This document shows positions 2,001 to 26,096 of a stretch of 64,000 nt of DNA, piece after piece (position 1 is the stretch's first letter; each line of letters opens with the position of its first letter). The notes under the pieces are model-generated. The model was given only the letters and a program-made list of their open reading frames with translations, searched no databases and was not told the origin of the DNA. A program made the translations under genes and the position numbers. The stretch is from Velocimicrobium porci (GTDB lineage: Bacteria; Bacillota; Clostridia; Lachnospirales; Lachnospiraceae): contig NZ_VUMT01000013.1 of NCBI RefSeq assembly GCF_009696045.1, positions 14,816 through 78,815 on the forward strand, read 5' to 3'.

Positions 2001-2148
2001 CTTTTCCGAACCTTTCTGTTATCTCTTACAATATTCTTTCTTATTCTAGCCTATTTCAATCAAAATGTAAAGAACCCTTCACTCGTAGAAATACTTGACC
2101 CAAAACGCAGAAAAAAAGAACGCATCTCTTTTATAATTGCGTTCTCTT

Positions 2149-2487
2149 TTAGGAAAAATACCCTACATAATATTCAATTTCCTGACTTCTTTCATTTATA
2201 ATTGGCACCATCGTTATTGTCAATTTTAACATGCCCTGCATCGTTTTTATATTAAAAAAAAATGTAGATACATCAATTTTTTTTTCTTTTAACGTTTCTT
2301 TCCAACTGCAAAACCTCACTCTTTCTTGTGGTTCCAAAACTTCTTCTAAAAAACTAAACATATCGGTCTTTTCTTTGTTCTCACAGTCCAAGTGATATTT
2401 TTCAATAAAACACTCTGTATCAAATCCAGACTTTTTATTTTCATAATATTCAAAATATAGTAAATTGTTCATTGCCGTCTTTTCCAA
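2149..2487 (-). CDS. hypothetical protein (112 aa)
   Basis: An ORF with no recognisable motif. It is divergent from an XRE regulator and lies between rplQ and ecfA1. Confidence 0.35.
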   Translation of the reverse strand: MEKTAMNNLLYFEYYENKKSGFDTECFIEKYHLDCENKEKTDMFSFLEEVLEPQERVRFCSWKETLKEKKIDVSTFFFNIKTMQGMLKLTITMVPIINERSQEIEYYVGYFS

Positions 2488-2662
2488 TTAACTCCTCACT
2501 GCCTTTTGCTTTTCCATATATAGTTTATTATAACATTTTCCTTTTTTACTTTCAACAGCTATAACTAAATATATAGCTATCACTTTCTGTATAATATTCA
2601 CTATTCACGATATACTATTAAATAATATTCAGTAATTATGAAATAATAAATAGGAGTAATTT

Positions 2663-2989
2663 ATGGCAATAGACTATCATATTATTGGTCAACGAATTAA
2701 AGAAAAACGTCATGGTCTAAAAAAAACACAAGAAGACCTCGCAGAATTTCTTTCCGTTTCTGTTGGTTATGTAAGCCAGATTGAAAGAGGTATTACCAAA
2801 GTTAATCTTGACACTCTATCTAAAATCTCTATTTTTTTAGAATGCGACATCGCAGATTTACTTCATAGCACTTCTTATCAAAGTAATGATTATCTAAATC
2901 AGGAATTCTCAGAACTAATTTTGAAATTAAATGATTCAAACCGCAAGCTCGCATATGAGATACTATATATACTGTTAAAGAGTCAATAA
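2663..2989 (+). CDS. XRE-family helix-turn-helix transcriptional regulator
   Basis: The N-terminal Cro/C1-type HTH reads QEDLAEFLSVSVGYVSQIERG. The protein is 108 aa. Confidence 0.7.
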   Translation: MAIDYHIIGQRIKEKRHGLKKTQEDLAEFLSVSVGYVSQIERGITKVNLDTLSKISIFLECDIADLLHSTSYQSNDYLNQEFSELILKLNDSNRKLAYEILYILLKSQ

Positions 2990-3016
2990 TATTAACTTAT
3001 GTATAAGCAAATAGGG

Positions 3017-3053
3017 AAAAAAATAAGACATAGTTTGATTAACTACGTCTTAT
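3017..3053. terminator. Rho-independent terminator at the end of the alpha operon (bidirectional hairpin)
   Basis: The hairpin is ATAAGAC(N17)GTCTTAT. An A7 run lies on the plus strand, equivalent to a T7 run on the minus strand, immediately after the rplQ stop. Confidence 0.6.
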
Positions 3054-3076
3054 CTTTTTAATATTTTAACTTTGAA

Positions 3077-3613
3077 TTAAACTAATTCAATTAAAACTTC
3101 CATAGCAGCGTCACCTTTACGTTGACCAATTTTAACGATTCTTGTGTAACCACCGTTGCGGTCAGCATATTTTGGTGCAATTTCATTGAATAACTTATCT
3201 GTAAGATCTACAGTTTTTGTATTCTTTTTCTTTCCAGCATTTTCTGTTGGAACTTCTGTTACAGAGTAAAGAACTTTGTTCATTTGTTTTCTTGCGTGAA
3301 GACGGCTTGGGCTGTCTTTCTTAATTTCTTTTTGAACTTCGTCGTATACAGTTACTTTCTTTCCGTCTACAACTTCTTTTACTCTTTTTCCATCTTTATC
3401 TTTACGAGCAACTTTTGCTGTAACTGTAACTGTTTCAAAATTATCTTTTTCTTTTACAGCTAAGGCAATTAAATGCTCTGTCATTTTACGGATTTCTTTC
3501 GCTTTTGCTTCTGTTGTAACAATTTTACCATTGTAAAGTAAGTTTGTTACTTGGTTACGAAGTAAAGCTTTTCTTTGGCTTGATGTTCTACCAAGTTTTC
3601 TATATCCTGCCAT
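3077..3613 (-). CDS. rplQ: 50S ribosomal protein L17 (with lysine-rich C-terminal extension)
   Basis: The N-terminus [21 protein letters not shown] is a typical L17 start. The gene follows rpoA. Confidence 0.9.
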
Positions 3614-5775: not shown

Positions 5776-6144
5776 TTATTTCTTCTTGTTAGCTACTGTA
5801 CGCTTAGGACCTTTTCTTGTTCTAGCGTTTGTTTTTGTCTTCTGTCCACGAACTGGAAGACCTTTTCTATGACGGATTCCTCTATAGCATCCGATTTCTT
5901 GTAATCTCTTAATATTAAGTGCGATTTCTCTACGTAAATCACCTTCTACTGTCTGTGTTTCGTCAATTACGTCACGAATTCTTCCTACTTCTTCGTCTGT
6001 TAAATCTTTACAACGAGTGTTAGGATCAACATTTGCTGCCGCAAGAATACGATTGGAACTTACTCTACCAATACCGTAAATATAAGTTAAACCAATTTCA
6101 ACACGCTTTTCTCTTGGTAAATCTACACCACTAATACGAGCCAT
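5776..6144 (-). CDS. rpsM: 30S ribosomal protein S13
   Basis: The start is the ATG at 6144 ([26 protein letters not shown]) with a GGAGGTG RBS. The track ORF begins 12 codons upstream. Confidence 0.95.
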
Positions 6145-6559
6145 GCGTTTGCACCTCCGATATTTTTTTAAATTCAACAAGTTCTGTTTCCAGAACTACT
6201 CTCAATAAGTCTTTCACTGTTTATAATTTCTACGTTCCTATAAATCATAAAGCAGTATACGATAAAAATGATTATGCAACAGTCATTGTCCGTAAGAACA
6301 AAACTGGTGCATCAGCCGCTTTAAACCATGATGCTAAGGACATCCAATTCCCTAGCACTAGAGATAGCGATAATGACACTTTTCTCTAAAACGGGTAATC
6401 ACTCCGTCCACAGTATCACGCTGTCCTCTCTGAATAGAAATAATGACATAACTATTCGACAGCCGTAACACAAAAAGCAAGTACTATTCTTATATTAAAC
6501 ATGAGAAAAGCCAAAGCAGGTAACTTACCTTCCTTGGTTCTCTTTATGTGATATATTTA

Positions 6560-6673
6560 TTAGCCTTGTCTTTGTTTGTGTCTTGGGTTTTCGCAGATTA
6601 CTCTGACGCTTCCTTTTCTTTTAATGACTTTGCATTTTTCGCAAATCGGTTTTACTGATGATCTTACCTTCAT
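6560..6673 (-). CDS. rpmJ: 50S ribosomal protein L36 (not in the ORF track, found by manual translation)
   Basis: Reverse-strand translation gives [37 protein letters not shown] followed by TAA. The RBS is AAAGGAGAG, 7 nt upstream of the ATG. Confidence 0.9.
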
Positions 6674-6801
6674 TACAATCTCTCCTTTCGCAAAAGTCCA
6701 CTTGCTATTTTAACATAAGATTTTACAAATTGCAAGCACTTTTTTTATTCTTTTTTTCATTTTCCACACTATAATTAATTTACAGATTTTTGTATCTTCT
6801 G

Positions 6802-7530
6802 TTAAATATTATTGAATTTATATCTGCTGCCTACCATATATTGTCGTCCGATAAAAACCGGGTTATCAGCTTCATCTCCAAAATAAACATTCATATAAAA
6901 AAGCGGTTCTCCGATAACAACATCTAAATCCCTTGCATGATGCGATTCCGCTTTAACAATCTCAAGTGTACTTTTTACAGACTTGCAGGCATGTAAGCCA
7001 TGCTTTTCAAGTACTTCAAATAAAGAAGTGTTTTCTAATGTTTCATCTTGCAGAAATTTGAATTTTTCAAACACATAAAAATTATTTTCCAACATGATTG
7101 GCGTATCATCTGCCGTAAGAACCCGTTTGATATATAATATTTTTGTTTTTTCATCGACATGAAAAAAGTTCTGCTCATCCAATCTTGCAAAACTAATTTG
7201 ATAGTCTAACACTCTCGCTCCAGGCTTCATACCATTTTGTCTGCATGCTTTTGAAAAACTTAGCACTTCATTCGAACGTTCTATTTTTCGAAGTAATTTC
7301 GGTTTACAGACAAACGTTCCTTTACCTTGCTTTTTAATTAAATACCCTTCATTACACAATTCGTCCACTGCCCGTCTGACCGTAATCCGACTCACGCCAT
7401 AATCGGCACTTAACTCTGGTTCGGTCGGTATTTTGTCATCATAATTATACTTCCCATTCTCAATTGAATATTTAATATCTTCCATTAATTGTTGATATAA
7501 TGGCGTCAAAGACGTTTCATTTAATTTCAT
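6802..7530 (-). CDS. GntR/HutC-family transcriptional regulator (winged HTH plus UTRA effector domain)
   Basis: The N-terminal GntR HTH reads IPTEPELSADYGVSRITVRRAVDELCNEGYLIKKQGKGTFV. The probable start is the ATG at 7530 with a GAGGTG RBS. Confidence 0.8.
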   Translation of the reverse strand: MKLNETSLTPLYQQLMEDIKYSIENGKYNYDDKIPTEPELSADYGVSRITVRRAVDELCNEGYLIKKQGKGTFVCKPKLLRKIERSNEVLSFSKACRQNGMKPGARVLDYQISFARLDEQNFFHVDEKTKILYIKRVLTADDTPIMLENNFYVFEKFKFLQDETLENTSLFEVLEKHGLHACKSVKSTLEIVKAESHHARDLDVVIGEPLFYMNVYFGDEADNPVFIGRQYMVGSRYKFNNI

Positions 7531-7907
7531 AATCCACCTCATATCCCTCGTACTTTCTATCATAATCTCATATAGACATAATATCCCTACACTGCTTTTT
7601 TGTACTATATCGTCAGTTTTAACATTGAAGCTAGTATAAATCGCCCTCCTAAAACTTCAACTAAAATTCCTTTTTCTAACAAAATCTGAACTTATTATGA
7701 TATTTCTTCCATCTGTATTTTTTCTTTTTTAATCATTTTCCTACTCCTTTTCCTATTATTTTAATTTACTACAATAAGATACCATTCAAACCTAAAAGTT
7801 ACAACCATTTCCGACAATTCCAACATAAATGGAAAACAAAAAACAAGCGTTGCAATATCAACCGTTTCCTTTGTATTGCCGAAATGACTGCATGCAATTA
7901 ACAGACT

Positions 7908-8261
7908 TTGCTTTCCCAATTACCAAATCAAACACCTAACAAACTATTTCAAGACATAAAAGACAAGCAAATTGTCGTAAGGGTCCAATTTACTCAAATC
8001 ACAGGAATACACAATATTACTGCTGCCTTCTATTCGCCAAACGGAAAATTATATGAATACAGCGAAAATATACTATTTCAACCTGAGGAACAGGAAAATG
8101 TATTTTTATGGTTTTGGGTTGATATGCAGGAGATAAAAGCAAATGTTTCTTATGAAGGTACCTGGTTTATTCGGTTATTTATAAATGGGGAACATATATT
8201 GGAAGATACTTTTTCTATAAAAAAAGAAATTGAAATCACACCAATCCAAAGTTTTATTTAA
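7908..8261 (+). CDS. hypothetical protein (117 aa, TTG start, no clear RBS)
   Basis: Only an ORF. It precedes the giant lysine-rich gene on the same strand. Confidence 0.3.
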   Translation: MLSQLPNQTPNKLFQDIKDKQIVVRVQFTQITGIHNITAAFYSPNGKLYEYSENILFQPEEQENVFLWFWVDMQEIKANVSYEGTWFIRLFINGEHILEDTFSIKKEIEITPIQSFI

Positions 8262-8317
8262 ATCGATTGGAATTTATTTTTACAAAACAAAAAAGCGTAG
8301 AAAGGTAAAAAAATACT

Positions 8318-11068
8318 ATGAGTAACAAAATCTCTGGCAAAAGCCATTCGCATTCAAGCTATCATGCAGCAACACCAAGCAGAAATACTGCTAAATCCTC
8401 TCCTTCGAAAACCTCAAGCTCTTCAAGTAAAAACAGCACTAGCACTTCATCAAAAGCAACAACTAGACCAGCAGCTAAAACGGTAACTAAGCCTGCCACT
8501 AAACCAGTAACTAAAACGACAACTAAATCAAATACTTCAACTTCGTCCTCAAAAAAAACGGATAAGAAAATTAGTTCTAATGAAGTTAAAAAAAACTCCA
8601 CAGACTCTTCAAAAAAGGATGTAAAATCGAAAGAAAAAAATATAGCGAAAAATTTCATTAGTTTAAACTCTAAACAATCAGCAAAACCCAAAAAGCCACA
8701 TAAACCTGTACCCACTTCAAATCAAAAAATAGAAACAGGTCTTCCATTTCCTACAATACCAATTGCTCAATGTGATTTTTACATAAAGGCCATAAAGGAA
8801 TGGTATAAAACTCATGCTGAAGCTCCTGCAAATGGAAATTATACAGGTTTTACTTCGGAAAATTTAAACTCTTATGACAGCTTTATTCCAATTAATAATC
8901 CAATACAAAAGGAGCCCCCGAACCAATTAAATTCCAGCCCAGTCAATTTCCATCCGATAAACCCTGGCATGACCAAACCAAATCTCTCCAACAATACTTC
9001 ATCAAAAAAAAATGAACCTTCCAAAAATATTATTATTTCAAGCAAAGATGTTGTAGTATTAAAGACAAACACGGGTAATAAAACTCCTGTCTCAAAAAAA
9101 CAGGAGAAAAAGAAAGTATTTTTTAATTCAAAAAAAGAGGAAGTACAGTGGACACCAAAAAAAGAGAAGGTAAATAAAAGTGTCCTAACAACAAAAGCAA
9201 CCATCAAACAAGTTATTTCAAAAACAAATGTTAAAAACAAGCACGCTTCTATCTCCCAGCTTCCTATTGAAAAGAATAAGCAAACAAATTCCTTAAGTTC
9301 TTGGAATAAAAATAACCTTTTTAATCATATTCGTTCAGAAAAGAAAAAAGCACTTAATCCTCTTTCTTCTCTTATCCCTGAAAAACAGACGATAACAGAA
9401 ATTATAAATAAGCAAGAGGCAAAGCGAACCTTGTCTTTCGCAAAGACTTTAATCGCTTCCTTAAATCAGGCAACAAAACGTAAATCACACACAACAGGCT
9501 ACTACGCTTCTTTAGAAAAGGAAAAGCAACTCCAAGAACAGGAAAAGCAAAAGAGAAAAAAGGCAGAACTAGCAGAAAAAACAAAAAAAGAAACCAATAA
9601 GAAACTCGAAACAAAGCAAAATTATGATAAAAAACACCACATTGATTTTGGAAAAATAAACGCTACGATTCATTATCGTGGCACAGGAAGTTCTAATAAG
9701 TCCAGAAATCAAACTATTAGGAAACCATCTTTAACATATTCCGGATTAATACACCCTTTGGAGTATCATAAGCCAAACCTAACAAAACTATCACAGCCTT
9801 CTAAAGCAAAACGTTCCTCTTCTAGTAAGCATAAAGGAAAGAAAAAGACAAAGAATACGAAAAGTTCAGAACAAAAAAACGATGGATTTATAGGAAAATT
9901 CTGTAGCAATATAAAGAGTGGACTACACACACTAAAGAACAAGGTAAATCATGCTTATCATGATACAAAATCCAAAGTAACAAATTGGTTTATGAGCAGG
10001 AAAGTAAAACAAAAAACAAAAACAAAAAAATCCAAGACTCATAAAAAAAATAACACTTCCAAAAACCATTCACATCCACATGCGATAAAAGTAAAAGTTA
10101 AAAACTCGCAAAAAAAAGCACACTCCGCAAAACCTGGCAAGCATCATACTATTGCAAAAAAACCGACAGTCCATTCAACTCACTCCTCGCAGTCAAAAGC
10201 AAATGCAAAAAAAGCAACAAAAAACGGTCATGTCATAGATAACGTCCAAACTGCTTTAGACTTCGCCGGTATAGTGTTTGATGGAGCAGATTTAGTAAAT
10301 GCCGGAATTTATTATGTAAGAGGAAAGAAACTGGATGCAACCATATCCGCATTAGGTTCGCTCCCATTTGTAGGAGAAACTGCAAAAGCTGGAAAATATG
10401 CCATAAAACTTTCCAAAGGTGCAAAACTGGCGAAAGGTACAAAGTATGTTGCAAAAGTTTCAAAAACAGAGAAAGACGTCGTACATATTTACAAAATAGG
10501 AAAAGACGGAAAAAAACTCCTCAAATATAAAGGAACCATCCAAGCAATTGGAAAAGGTAGCAACCGGCTAAAAAATAGTGAAAAGGTCTTGAAAAAGGCA
10601 ACGGAAAAGGGGTATCATGTTGTAAGAAATGCCCCAAAGGTAAAAAAAGCAACAAAAGGAACAAAGAAAGCAACTTCCTTGGAAAAGGGACTAAAGGGTG
10701 TTCGTGGTTCGAAAGTAAAAAATAGTAAGAAGGTAGCAAAAAAGCATAAGAGTGGTAGTGGCTCTGTAATAAAAAATATACAATCAAAATCTCCACAGCA
10801 ATTAATTGAAGATGGATGGGAAGACATTACAAATCCTAAAATGGCAGCAAACACAAACTCAAGAGAATTTTATGACCCAAAGTCAGGTTTAAAAATAAGA
10901 TTTGATAAAGGGGTTGATGGTGCAAATGGATTTGAAGCAGTAGACCATTATCATGTAATGAATCCAAATTATACAAACAAAAAAGTTGATTATTATTTGG
11001 ATATAGATGGAAAACCTGTCGGAAAAGGGTCAAAGGCATCTCATATCGTAATTAAAGGAGAAGAATAA
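8318..11068 (+). CDS. giant lysine/serine/threonine-rich protein with a pre-toxin-TG-like motif and a C-terminal toxin-like module (polymorphic-toxin candidate)
   Basis: The ORF is 916 aa and uninterrupted, which is notable in very AT-rich DNA. The N-terminal ~130 aa are S/T/K low complexity, with no signal peptide and no TM segment. Near residue 640 the motif ALDFAGIVFDGADLVNAGIYYVRGKKLDATISALGSLPFVGETAKAGKYA resembles the PT-TG pre-toxin domain. KKATKG-type basic repeats follow, then a compact ~85-aa C-terminal module (GLKIRFDKGVDGANGFEAVDHYHVMNPNYTNKKVDYYLDIDGKPVGKGSKASHIVIKG). Confidence 0.6.
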   Translation: MSNKISGKSHSHSSYHAATPSRNTAKSSPSKTSSSSSKNSTSTSSKATTRPAAKTVTKPATKPVTKTTTKSNTSTSSSKKTDKKISSNEVKKNSTDSSKKDVKSKEKNIAKNFISLNSKQSAKPKKPHKPVPTSNQKIETGLPFPTIPIAQCDFYIKAIKEWYKTHAEAPANGNYTGFTSENLNSYDSFIPINNPIQKEPPNQLNSSPVNFHPINPGMTKPNLSNNTSSKKNEPSKNIIISSKDVVVLKTNTGNKTPVSKKQEKKKVFFNSKKEEVQWTPKKEKVNKSVLTTKATIKQVISKTNVKNKHASISQLPIEKNKQTNSLSSWNKNNLFNHIRSEKKKALNPLSSLIPEKQTITEIINKQEAKRTLSFAKTLIASLNQATKRKSHTTGYYASLEKEKQLQEQEKQKRKKAELAEKTKKETNKKLETKQNYDKKHHIDFGKINATIHYRGTGSSNKSRNQTIRKPSLTYSGLIHPLEYHKPNLTKLSQPSKAKRSSSSKHKGKKKTKNTKSSEQKNDGFIGKFCSNIKSGLHTLKNKVNHAYHDTKSKVTNWFMSRKVKQKTKTKKSKTHKKNNTSKNHSHPHAIKVKVKNSQKKAHSAKPGKHHTIAKKPTVHSTHSSQSKANAKKATKNGHVIDNVQTALDFAGIVFDGADLVNAGIYYVRGKKLDATISALGSLPFVGETAKAGKYAIKLSKGAKLAKGTKYVAKVSKTEKDVVHIYKIGKDGKKLLKYKGTIQAIGKGSNRLKNSEKVLKKATEKGYHVVRNAPKVKKATKGTKKATSLEKGLKGVRGSKVKNSKKVAKKHKSGSGSVIKNIQSKSPQQLIEDGWEDITNPKMAANTNSREFYDPKSGLKIRFDKGVDGANGFEAVDHYHVMNPNYTNKKVDYYLDIDGKPVGKGSKASHIVIKGEE

Positions 11069-11069
11069 T

Positions 11070-11399
11070 ATGTTAGTAACAGAATTAGTAAAGAAAATAA
11101 ATTTTAATGATAGCTGTGTAAATGAGTTGGTTTATGCAAATGGAACAGTGATACTGAATATTGATTTATGCATGTGGAAGCAAAATGAATATCAAGATGG
11201 TGACCCCGAATTAAAGGAAGTTATTTTAAAATTTTTGAATTCAACAAATTATAATTGGGATTCAGAAAAAAGAGAAGATGAGATTGATTATGATTCAATT
11301 GTTGATGTTACATGTGAAGAAAGTACTGTAAAAATAGTATTAGAAGATGAAGTCGTTTCTATATTGACATTTGAGTGTAGTGAGGTTCAAATTGATTAA
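11070..11399 (+). CDS. small acidic protein, candidate immunity protein for the upstream toxin-like gene
   Basis: It starts 1 bp after the upstream stop, with a GGAGAAG RBS inside the upstream gene's 3' end. It is 109 aa and D/E-rich. Confidence 0.45.
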   Translation: MLVTELVKKINFNDSCVNELVYANGTVILNIDLCMWKQNEYQDGDPELKEVILKFLNSTNYNWDSEKREDEIDYDSIVDVTCEESTVKIVLEDEVVSILTFECSEVQID

Positions 11400-11484
11400 A
11401 TTATATCATCCATGAACAAATAATGCTTTGGTGTTAATTGTAGCTATACAATAATTTATGTTGAACATAACTCCTTTAAAATAA

Positions 11485-11537
11485 CTGTATCACCTATCTG
11501 TCCATGAAATGAATGATATGTAGGTGATACAGTTTTT
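11485..11537 (+). terminator. putative terminator after the toxin/immunity-like pair
   Basis: A perfect 12-bp stem, CTGTATCACCTA(N24)TAGGTGATACAG, is followed by TTTTT. The loop is long, so confidence is only moderate. Confidence 0.4.
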
Positions 11538-11721
11538 AGTCTATTAGCAATTAGAGAAAACAGTGTTGAAAATTATACGATTACTTGCTCAAATATTATC
11601 CAGCAGAATTGTGTCTTGGTATCATATTGTCGATTACTGATTATAAGTTCCGTATCCTCTTTTAGGAGAACTTTTTGAAAGTAATGCCCTTTATCCATGA
11701 AATAACATGCCAGTTTCATTT

Positions 11722-12096
11722 TCATGATATGTTCGGCATCTTCTCTATTGAAAGTGCTATCTGATTTCGGTGGTGTGCTTCGGCAATAGCATATTCAATT
11801 ATTTGACTGTGTGTATTCGAAGAATGTTGTTCCTGTAACATATCCAGTAGTCCGTCATAAACAGCAATTGTCATGGATTTATATGCAGATGGAACAAACT
11901 GGTCTGGATGTTGGAGTGCCAGATACAAATTTTCTGCCTTGCGTAATTTGTTCTTCTTTTTATACAGAGCCAGTAACATAATAATCAATATGCAGTCTGT
12001 TTTACAATATTTCTTTCCAAATTCATTTTCTATCTTTTTCAGAGCCATCTCCCAAAGAATTTCGTTGATTTGAATTTTAATATCCTTTTTTCTCAT
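11722..12096 (-). CDS. hypothetical protein (124 aa)
   Basis: Only an ORF. It is the last coding sequence in the insertion. Confidence 0.35.
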   Translation of the reverse strand: MRKKDIKIQINEILWEMALKKIENEFGKKYCKTDCILIIMLLALYKKKNKLRKAENLYLALQHPDQFVPSAYKSMTIAVYDGLLDMLQEQHSSNTHSQIIEYAIAEAHHRNQIALSIEKMPNIS

Positions 12097-12770
12097 ATTG
12101 TTCTGTCTCCTTGAAGGTTTATTTGACCTCTGAGGAGCAGAAGATATATGAGTATGTGAAAAAGGTAGATTGAATAGTTAGCACAAATATCAATTTCCGT
12201 TTATATTCTGCCCCATGAAAGACCACAGAATATAAGCCGAGATGAGTATTCTAAAATGAAAGTATATTTTTTATTATGAGCGGTAGAATTATATAAAATT
12301 TCCGTTTGAAAAGCGGTAATTTCGACTCTAATATTGCTTCAAAAGGTGGTAAATCAAATACAGATTTTTGCCAGAAAAACGGTATCGGATTCTTTTGATT
12401 TTGCTATCAAAGATATTTCAGGATCCCTTTTTCCTTTAGAAATCTAGCCATTTTACAAGATTCTTTCACAATTAAGTTTTACTTCAAGATGAATTATGAC
12501 ATTCACAGACAGGTTACTGACAATTCGCAGGGGTCTCATGAATACAGACAACTTAGACAATGATGGATAATCCCCAGTAATCTTAAACTATCATCCGTTG
12601 ATACCATCGAAATTCTCCAATCTTAATCCGCACATCCTAACATCACACCTCTGTTTTGATTCATTCTGATTTGTAACTACACAGAACCAAGTAAATATGA
12701 TGGAAAAGTTTCCTATAAAGCAAAAAAAAGCCCCTGCCATTCCAGCAAGAGCCATTCTAAATCTCTATTC

Positions 12771-12989
12771 TTATTTATCTCTCCAAATAATTCTACCTTT
12801 TGTAAGATCATAAGGAGAAAGTTCTAATGTAACCTTATCTCCTGGTAAAATACGAATAAAGTTCATTCTTAATTTACCACTGATGTGAGCCAATACTATA
12901 TGTCCATTCTCCAATTCCACACGAAACATTGCGTTTGGCAATTTTTCAACAACAGTTCCTTCGATTTCAACTACATCTGCTTTTGACAT
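12771..12989 (-). CDS. infA: translation initiation factor IF-1
   Basis: The 72-aa ORF reads [53 protein letters not shown]. Confidence 0.95.
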
Positions 12990-25658: not shown

Positions 25659-26096
25659 AAAAAAAGCCGCCTCCTTTTCGCACTTAATATCAGTACGACA
25701 AGTGGTGACTGTACACTCATCCGTGTGTATCGCGAATAATTCATTCCGATTTCCTTCACACGCTCTGCCCTAGGCAGAAAATATCCGTTTGTACAGTGAC
25801 TTGTCGCCAGTTTCCTAACTTGACATTCGCTCCACGGAAAACCTGTCATATTCAAGACAGCAACCTCACGCTTCTTAGCTATCATGCCACAGCAATTGTC
25901 ATTATACTATAACTTTTTTATTTATGCAAGAGTTTTTTTGAATTTTTTTGAATTTGCAAATTCAAATTATTCTTCCCGTAGCAAAAGCTCACTGTGTAAA
26001 TCGTGGAAATACGTAATAAGTCCATCTATTTTTCTTCGAATATTGTCCCATTTATACATTTTTTCTTTTCCCAATTATTATATTTGATACAAAAAA

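Follow-up and report, generated by a model that had tools for sequence, protein, structure and literature searches.

In Bacillus subtilis and Escherichia coli, the genes of the spc-alpha region follow one another in the order secY-adk-map-infA-rpmJ-rpsM-rpsK-(rpsD)-rpoA-rplQ. Intervals flanked by core genes and acting as hotspots of horizontal transfer, also called regions of genome plasticity, were reportedly described by Oliveira et al. in 2017. The locus analyzed here has features of both. It lies within a stretch of 64,000 nucleotides (nt) of the Velocimicrobium porci genome (contig NZ_VUMT01000013.1, positions 14,816 to 78,815; hereafter, the window), where infA, encoding initiation factor IF-1, and rpmJ, encoding ribosomal protein L36, are separated by 6.1 kb of DNA. 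Positions 6745 to 12720, approximately, probably constitute a lineage-specific accessory islet. It is housed in the spacer that separates the predicted infA terminator from the predicted rpmJ promoter, a transcriptionally neutral place and native operon boundary at which genes would have been gained repeatedly. The insertion is genuine and derived, but belongs to a kind already known.

The canonical gene order is retained on both sides of the islet, on the minus strand: rplQ (3077-3613), rpoA, rpsD, rpsK, rpsM (5776-6144) and rpmJ are found on one side, and the same strand resumes beyond it with infA, map, adk and secY, up to an S10-Clostridia leader. The arrangement differs from that of B. 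subtilis and E. coli in the distance between infA and rpmJ, in the apparent promoter and terminator-like hairpin belonging to rpmJ itself, and in the long structured leader of rpsM. The open reading frame (ORF) listing and Pfam searches confirmed the coordinates and gene order of the initial annotation. Five ORFs are located between the two genes, namely a GntR/UTRA regulator, ORF117, ORF916, ORF109 and ORF124, and the approximately 670 bp reported as non-coding (12097-12770, between ORF124 and infA) do indeed lack a convincing ORF. The segment had also been described as lying mostly on the strand opposite to the ribosomal protein genes; this holds for three of the five ORFs (about 3.4 kb, plus strand), whereas the GntR gene and ORF124 are co-oriented with those genes. 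The genes and signals at the two edges are as follows (E, expectation value):

12771-12989, minus strand: infA (IF-1), last gene of a spc-type unit secY-adk-map-infA (Pfam eIF-1a, E 3e-28)
12720-12753, minus strand: terminator-like hairpin and U-run directly after infA, infA-side edge of the islet (consensus scan; -16.2 kcal/mol, z -2.9)
6674-6745, minus strand: rpmJ promoter-like element and short 5' leader, rpmJ-side edge of the islet (consensus and conservation)
6560-6673, minus strand: rpmJ (L36; Pfam Ribosomal_L36, E 1e-20)
6504-6543, minus strand: terminator-like hairpin with U-rich tail, after rpmJ (-16.7 kcal/mol, z -4.1)

In order to compare the junction across the family, a scan for ribosomal protein S13 was run on one genome per species. 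It provided 80 Lachnospiraceae loci, which were compared within 10-kb flanks; 75 of them could be assessed at the infA|rpmJ junction. The gap between the two genes is at most 600 bp in 64 of the 75 species (range 16-543, median 145 bp). The other 11 are disrupted, by other cargo or by the lack of a linked infA: two have gaps of 0.8 and 1.3 kb, four have gaps of 2.3-6.1 kb, and five show no infA in the 2.2 to 9.6 kb examined upstream of rpmJ. Neighbouring junctions, used as controls, never exceed 600 bp (map|infA, 0/67; rpmJ|rpsM, 0/80; rpsM|rpsK, 0/78). The closest relatives found at the species level are L026 and L021, with about 81-83% DNA identity in the alpha operon (82.8% for L021); L026 is the nearest one free of an island, with a gap of 421 bp. 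Because adjacency of infA and rpmJ holds in most of the family, the insertion is derived rather than ancestral, as the initial annotation had supposed.

The cargos found at the junction are unrelated among themselves and to the genes in the window. L021, the closest species, carries AgrB and GHKL kinase genes with an IS3-type transposase fragment beside them (positions 1-2243 of the locus); L030 (Butyribacter intestini) has an M14 carboxypeptidase, L040 two giant flagellins and a helix-turn-helix (HTH) protein, L062 a 1333-aa (amino acids) GH43/F5-8/Big_3 protein, L078 (Fusicatenibacter) VanW, L077 an arylamine N-acetyltransferase, L034 an arabinose operon and L033 housekeeping genes. In L065 (Blautia caecimuris) an integrase and capsule genes are present, the tyrosine-recombinase-like gene (1-934) being located about 8.6 kb upstream of rpmJ; unlike this species, two other Blautia species have contiguous infA and rpmJ. 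A further lineage, L001-L010, in which the infA product is identical and map is 88% identical, has yet other cargo after infA (ABC/RNPP/GH18 or radical-SAM/ABC/MFS genes), with no rpmJ within 10 kb.

The infA|rpmJ junction is used repeatedly and independently in Lachnospiraceae, and behaves as a hotspot flanked by core genes, the same interval holding differing accessory content and the neighbouring ones none. It resembles hotspots of that type in the presence of different accessory genes per lineage within one core interval, in the lack of integrases from most variants, and in the break of identity at the edge. It differs from them in its location within the genome's most conserved gene cluster, and in the kind of evidence, which spans the species of a family instead of a within-species pangenome, with a recombination mechanism that is inferred. 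An insertion at this point had been called unusual; with 11 of 75 species showing unrelated cargo or an unlinked cluster there, and the L001-L010 lineage other cargo again, this description does not hold for the family. Literature searches on an infA/rpmJ hotspot or promoter returned nothing pertinent.

Signals at the two edges were then compared among loci, all promoter and terminator assignments being sequence predictions. In the window, the hairpin and its U-run (12753-12729) come directly after infA; by a simple criterion of hairpin plus T-run, 39 of 81 loci have one in this position, and these include all island-bearing loci among those listed. On the other side, the rpmJ element consists of a -35 box TTGCAA (6730-6735), a 17-nt spacer and a TG-extended -10 box TAAAAT (6707-6712), followed by AGCAAGTGGACTTTTGCGAAAGGAG. 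The promoter/leader block is conserved in many Lachnospiraceae, island-free loci such as L026, L023, L029 and L045 included. A sigma-70-type match of at least 10/12 within 150 nt of rpmJ was found in 31 of 71 relatives' loci, where shuffles would lead one to expect 2.8; the element in the window itself reaches 9/12 and has the extended TG in addition. Since a terminator-like hairpin with a U-rich tail also follows rpmJ (a CCAAAG...CUUUGG-U-run hairpin, found in L021, L030 and L032 as well), this gene looks like a self-contained mini transcription unit, with its own promoter-like element and downstream hairpin.

Because of these three features, the hairpin after infA, the conserved promoter-like element and the hairpin after rpmJ, the infA|rpmJ spacer would be a transcription boundary that existed before the insertion, and DNA inserted into it need not disturb either unit. 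The initial annotation had proposed that read-through into rpmJ, rpsM and the alpha genes is interrupted or re-routed. This proposal is not sustained: the infA hairpin and the rpmJ promoter are predicted in relatives too, rpsM is itself preceded by another promoter-like box and a structured leader, and, as the boundary would predate the insertion, read-through would not have been re-routed by it. Transcription of rpmJ would start at its own predicted promoter, and expression of the alpha operon should for this reason be independent of read-through across the islet. Lying at a natural terminator/promoter boundary where relatives hold other cargo, the islet is best regarded as a mild curiosity and not as a disruption.

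Relatives resemble the window as far as the stop codon of infA on one side, and to a point about 70-100 bp upstream of rpmJ on the other. On this second side, a break of identity was seen by comparing the window with locus L013. The two are 98.6% identical over the shared 1,089 bp of rpsM-rpsK-rpsD, with identical rpsM and rpmJ proteins. Identity breaks at about 6710-6770, just upstream of the rpmJ -35 box, and drops to about 75-80% across the GntR gene, which occupies the same position and encodes an 82% identical protein; beyond this gene the sequences cannot be aligned. Such a pattern is as would be expected from allelic replacement by recombination in conserved flanks. Acquisition and turnover of the islet would most likely proceed via homologous recombination in the highly conserved flanking ribosomal protein and translation genes, with no dedicated recombinase.

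Contigs of the same species were also available. L005 covers map, infA, ORF124, ORF109 and the 3' end of ORF916 at 99.8% identity, while L011, L108 and L111 cover rpsM, rpmJ, the GntR gene, ORF117 and the 5' part of ORF916 at 99.6% identity or more; a metagenome scan with GntR returned one conspecific contig. Two differences were seen among conspecific contigs, a 702-bp indel at about 7918-7921 and a 1-bp deletion at 9226, and the islet content may still be changing among strains.

The main gene of the islet is ORF916, called toxin-like in the initial annotation. Polymorphic toxins of Firmicutes, with LXG/WXG100-type VII secretion system (T7SS), RHS, PT-HINT and PT-TG architectures, were reportedly described by Zhang, Aravind and colleagues in 2012. 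Features of the gene and of its surroundings are listed below (DNase, deoxyribonuclease):

8318-11068, plus strand: ORF916, 916-aa polymorphic toxin (domain recurrence, linked immunity gene)
8318-10237, plus strand: ORF916 aa 1-640, orphan low-complexity polycationic region (composition, homology searches)
10238-10753, plus strand: ORF916 aa 641-812, pre-toxin segment with possible PT-TG-like motif, then lysine-rich linker (weak pairwise match)
10754-11065, plus strand: ORF916 aa 813-916, PT7-like toxin domain, predicted metal-dependent DNase
11070-11399, plus strand: ORF109, acidic (net charge -17) cognate immunity protein, predicted PIM7-like fold
11483-11534, both strands: terminator-like hairpin, bidirectional, in the gap where ORF109 and ORF124 converge (inverted repeat I7)

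The C-terminal 104 aa of ORF916 are also found, with 56-99% identity, in LXG, WXG100 (Paenibacillus), PT-HINT, RHS and PT-TG proteins, and the boundary of identity is sharp. In L101, L102 and L104, whose contexts are unrelated, the toxin is followed at a distance of 1-2 nt by a homologue of ORF109, 109 or 115 aa in length (84, 80 and 31% identity, respectively). By its anatomy, ORF916-ORF109 is a polymorphic toxin-immunity pair, and the toxin-like label could be refined into a shuffled C-terminal toxin domain with a cognate immunity gene downstream. As in other Firmicutes polymorphic toxins, the C-terminal domain is cassette-like, with a sharp boundary and unrelated N-termini, and the immunity gene follows immediately; a PT-TG-like motif may also precede the toxin (a weak match). 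Unlike them, ORF916 has no recognizable domain for trafficking or secretion, nor a signal peptide or a scaffold of repeats, and no T7SS genes were seen near it. The hairpin beyond ORF109 folds at -24.5 kcal/mol (z -5.1) on the plus strand and at -20.7 kcal/mol (z -3.7) on the minus strand, with U-rich tails on both; together with that after infA, it would bracket the unit with terminators.

The ability of the two proteins to match known structures was analyzed by using AlphaFold2 models built from alignments, which were confident, with pLDDT (predicted local distance difference test) values of 91.5 and 93.8. The best structural match of both falls within a single crystal complex, PT7(Bc)/PIM7 (PDB 8owu); Foldseek matches of the toxin domain against PDB were weak, and phmmer and profile searches of PDB sequences found no PT7 chain at E up to 10. 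PT7 is an EDTA-sensitive, non-specific endo-DNase, whose active site is covered by the immunity protein (bioRxiv 10.1101/2021.10.19.465003). Because of this structural match to a known DNase, the C-terminus of ORF916 is predicted to be a PT7-type DNase, by inference an Mg2+-dependent, non-specific endonuclease of DNA. ORF109 is in turn predicted to inhibit the toxin domain, and would protect the producer by occluding the active site in the manner of PIM7. Six residues are invariant in the toxin domain (D51, E61, D64, H65, H67 and H97) and are candidate catalytic residues or metal ligands.

The pair shares with PT7(Bc)/PIM7(Bc) of Bacillus cereus a small C-terminal toxin domain followed by a gene for an acidic immunity protein of about 110 aa, the occurrence of the family in fusion with LXG, and a conserved Asp/His cluster, which may correspond to the catalytic D37 and H47 of PT7. 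It differs in that identity is only 23-24%, with no match to PDB chains at the sequence level, in the extra N-terminal helices of the domain (104 aa vs 76 aa), in the orphan polycationic N-terminus present where LXG would be expected, and in its activity, which is predicted only. Neither the toxin-domain family nor that of ORF109 has a Pfam or NCBIfam model, and searches of Pfam, NCBIfam, PHROGs and PADLOC with ORF117, ORF916, ORF109 and ORF124 gave no significant family. An HNH/EndoVII label for the toxin was discarded, as it rests on the truncated source name of protein P0049, with no support from any model.

The remainder of ORF916 is less easily placed. The pre-toxin segment aligns weakly with the corresponding region of P0036 (pairwise E 0.001), and matches neither P0020 nor the Pfam PT-TG model. 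The first 640 aa are rich in lysine (19.7%), serine (13.6%), threonine (9.8%) and asparagine (9.1%), for a net charge of +100. Compared with 1.84 billion representative proteins, their sole match is P0051, a variant from the same species; no Pfam or NCBIfam match, hydrophobic segment, trafficking/secretion domain or signal peptide was recognized in the N-terminus. The frame is clearly maintained, with 0 stops as opposed to 37 and 56 in the other two frames. In L106, a 1-bp deletion (window position 9226) splits ORF916, giving the 325-aa product that corresponds to the representative P0051. Because of this frameshift in one conspecific contig, the toxin may be decaying, or a homopolymer assembly error may be involved; ORF916 may represent either a novel carrier or a toxin on the way to decay.

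The other features of the islet include a regulator and what appear to be decayed genes (wHTH, winged HTH):

6802-7563, minus strand: GntR regulator of the HutC subfamily (wHTH and UTRA), co-oriented with rpmJ (PF00392, E 1e-16; PF07702, E 3.5e-21)
7564-7907, no strand assigned: intergenic region from which GntR and the ORF117-ORF916-ORF109 unit diverge, presumed regulatory (gene arrangement only)
7908-8261, plus strand: ORF117, TTG start, 5'-truncated remnant of a 228-249-aa protein with AMPK1_CBM domain (longer allele in conspecific contigs)
11722-12096, minus strand: ORF124, remnant truncated at the 3' end, retaining the 106 N-terminal residues of a protein at least 211 aa long (homologues P0053-P0073, 150-211 aa)
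12097-12719, no strand assigned: about 620 bp without convincing ORF (no Rfam match)

NCBIfam matches of the GntR protein all fall below equivalog cut-offs, and searches for its operator found no clear palindrome. The divergent arrangement suggests that this HutC-type protein may regulate itself and perhaps the toxin unit. ORF117 carries a deletion scar at about 7918-7921. At this point, L106 (2078-2779), L107 and L109 have 702 extra bp, absent from the window, L011, L108 and L111; with this segment, the ORF again encodes an AMPK1_CBM protein of 249 aa, and an ORF fragment of 67 aa, without Pfam match, is gained. Since the longer allele restores the full ORF, ORF117 is the C-terminal half of the AMPK1_CBM protein. 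A protein 100% identical to ORF124 is named from Velocimicrobium porci. The continuation of its parent shows a weak likeness to D12-class DNA adenine methyltransferases (MethyltransfD12, E 0.0011 and 0.07, below the Pfam cut-off).

Within the stretch without ORFs, 141 bp (12451-12591) have a counterpart, 87% identical, in an unannotated part of the Agathobacter rectalis plasmid NZ_CP143948.1, located downstream of a gene for a "glycohydrolase toxin TNT-related protein" and of a run of small hypothetical genes. The sequence is present in a single copy in the window and conserves no intact frame; a 28-nt core of it, tested on the other loci examined, was found only in the conspecific L005. The stretch 12097-12719 is probably a relic of earlier cargo, and ORF117, ORF124 and these 620 bp are probably all debris of genes once held in the slot.

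An alternative origin for the segment is an eroded mobile element (an integrative element, a transposon or a prophage fragment), once inserted site-specifically beside rpmJ and since deprived of its recombinase and ends; we consider it unlikely. The signs of decay just described (truncated ORF117, truncated ORF124, non-coding relic) fit this origin, as do the resemblance of the ORF124 parent to DNA methyltransferases, frequent passengers of mobile elements, and the IS3-type transposase fragment and tyrosine recombinase found in the same slot in L021 and L065. An imperfect 21-nt direct repeat (17/21, 81%) also lies near both islet ends, at 6772-6792 and 12350-12370; it was not seen as an att site elsewhere, and such a match is compatible with chance in AT-rich DNA. 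However, no integrase or transposase was found in the islet by scanning with Pfam, NCBIfam, PHROG and PADLOC, as the initial annotation had also noted; the repeat search gave no convincing att repeats, and no tRNA is present in positions 1-30000. DNA searches for a phage or plasmid backbone produced no phage match and, for plasmids, only the 141-bp fragment. The composition is close to native, with a G+C content (GC) of 32.8% as compared to 35.0% for the window, and a tetranucleotide distance within the window's own range; the term AT-rich was thus marginal, and the notion of AT-rich foreign DNA was rejected. Nor do the cargos at the junction have anything in common that would indicate one family of elements. 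In lacking a recombinase, att repeats, a tRNA and deviant composition, the islet differs from classical integrase-mediated islands.

It is much less probable still that the arrangement is native and ancestral in this lineage, infA and rpmJ having never been adjacent and the intervening genes being ordinary chromosomal ones. The near-native base composition would agree with this, as would the same content in all conspecific contigs recovered and the second, diverged GntR allele (L013, 82%) that also adjoins rpmJ. Against it stand the clear majority of adjacent pairs in the family (64/75), the different states of the two closest relatives (a 421-bp gap in L026, AgrB/kinase/IS3 cargo in L021), the divergence of the GntR region in L013 far beyond that of its flanks, and the nature of the toxin domain, a shuffled cassette present in Paenibacillus and many gut Firmicutes. 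Finally, an assembly or binning artefact fusing unrelated contigs can be dismissed with near certainty: metagenome assembly ERZ27230337 did break within ORF916, yielding L005 and L011, but both junctions are spanned by independent assemblies at 99.4% identity or more to the window (L005 on the infA side; L011, L108, L111, L019 and L020 on the rpmJ side).

An accessory islet acquired at a native transcription boundary is the reading we prefer, although several observations weigh against it. The breakpoint was observed on the rpmJ side only, in L013, and homologous recombination is argued from this one break of identity and from the absence of alternatives. With 10-kb flanks, loci L001-L010, L033, L034, L065 and L089 are compatible with long islands or with rearrangements. 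As regards the cargo, the likeness to PT7 is structural, without a counterpart at the sequence level, and the catalytic residues are candidates drawn from invariance; no trafficking domain that would account for export and delivery was found in ORF916, its N-terminal 640 aa have no homologue outside the species, and one conspecific contig carries it frameshifted.

Taken as an accessory islet, the locus indicates that a permissive slot exists even in the most conserved gene cluster of the genome, and that a break of infA-rpmJ synteny is to be taken as an operon boundary in use, not as damaged expression of ribosomal proteins. For annotation, it would provide a PT7/PIM7-type name and a likely activity for families that are widespread in gut Firmicutes and lack a model in Pfam and NCBIfam; for ecology, a locus of interbacterial competition that varies among strains is added in pig and human gut Lachnospiraceae. 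The only elements that are mildly surprising are the recurrent use of one junction across the family and the orphan N-terminus of ORF916, and current concepts are left unchanged. Two broader readings would be a family-wide, recombinase-free landing pad in the infA/rpmJ spacer, repeatedly capturing competition and surface genes inside the ribosomal protein supercluster, and a new delivery architecture in ORF916, where a disordered orphan N-terminus of 640 aa and charge +100 replaces LXG, RHS or WXG on a PT7-like DNase; we regard these as unlikely.

Some further observations concern the rest of the ribosomal protein cluster. The S10-Clostridia leader (RF03136, 93 bits) is found at 25801-25884, minus strand, at the head of the cluster, as expected; with this exception, Rfam scans of the window and of two non-coding stretches gave noise only. 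A candidate structured RNA was identified upstream of rpsM (6273-6484, minus strand), within the 415-bp spacer separating rpmJ from rpsM (6145-6559), with a -10-like box about 8 nt upstream. Three helices are common to 12 Lachnospiraceae sequences: P1 (UUGCUUU/AAAGCGG) is invariant, while compensatory changes occur at 8 pairs of P2 and P3 taken together. Of the cells in the alignment, 97.3% are paired, as compared to 31-60% in slid controls, and the covariation score was reached by 0 of 500 shuffles. The S4-Clostridia model (RF03140) has matches in this spacer in L037 and L086, whereas the window, L022, L024, L027 and L030 give none; the RNA may be a divergent or new variant of S4-type leader. 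Nearly all the rpmJ-rpsM spacers inspected (L022-L086) contain the motif GCGGCUG, followed by a hairpin with ACACC.GG...GUGUUGU; one group has this element at the 5' end of the spacer, and in another, to which the window belongs, it comes after helix P1.

The cluster is interrupted a second time, on a small scale, at 2001-3076, where an XRE-type HTH gene (2663-2989, plus strand) and ORF112 (2149-2487, minus strand) separate rplQ from the ecfA-type ABC ATPase genes. Both are also present in L011 and L012, and the GC of this interruption, 28.3%, is the lowest among the stretches tabulated.

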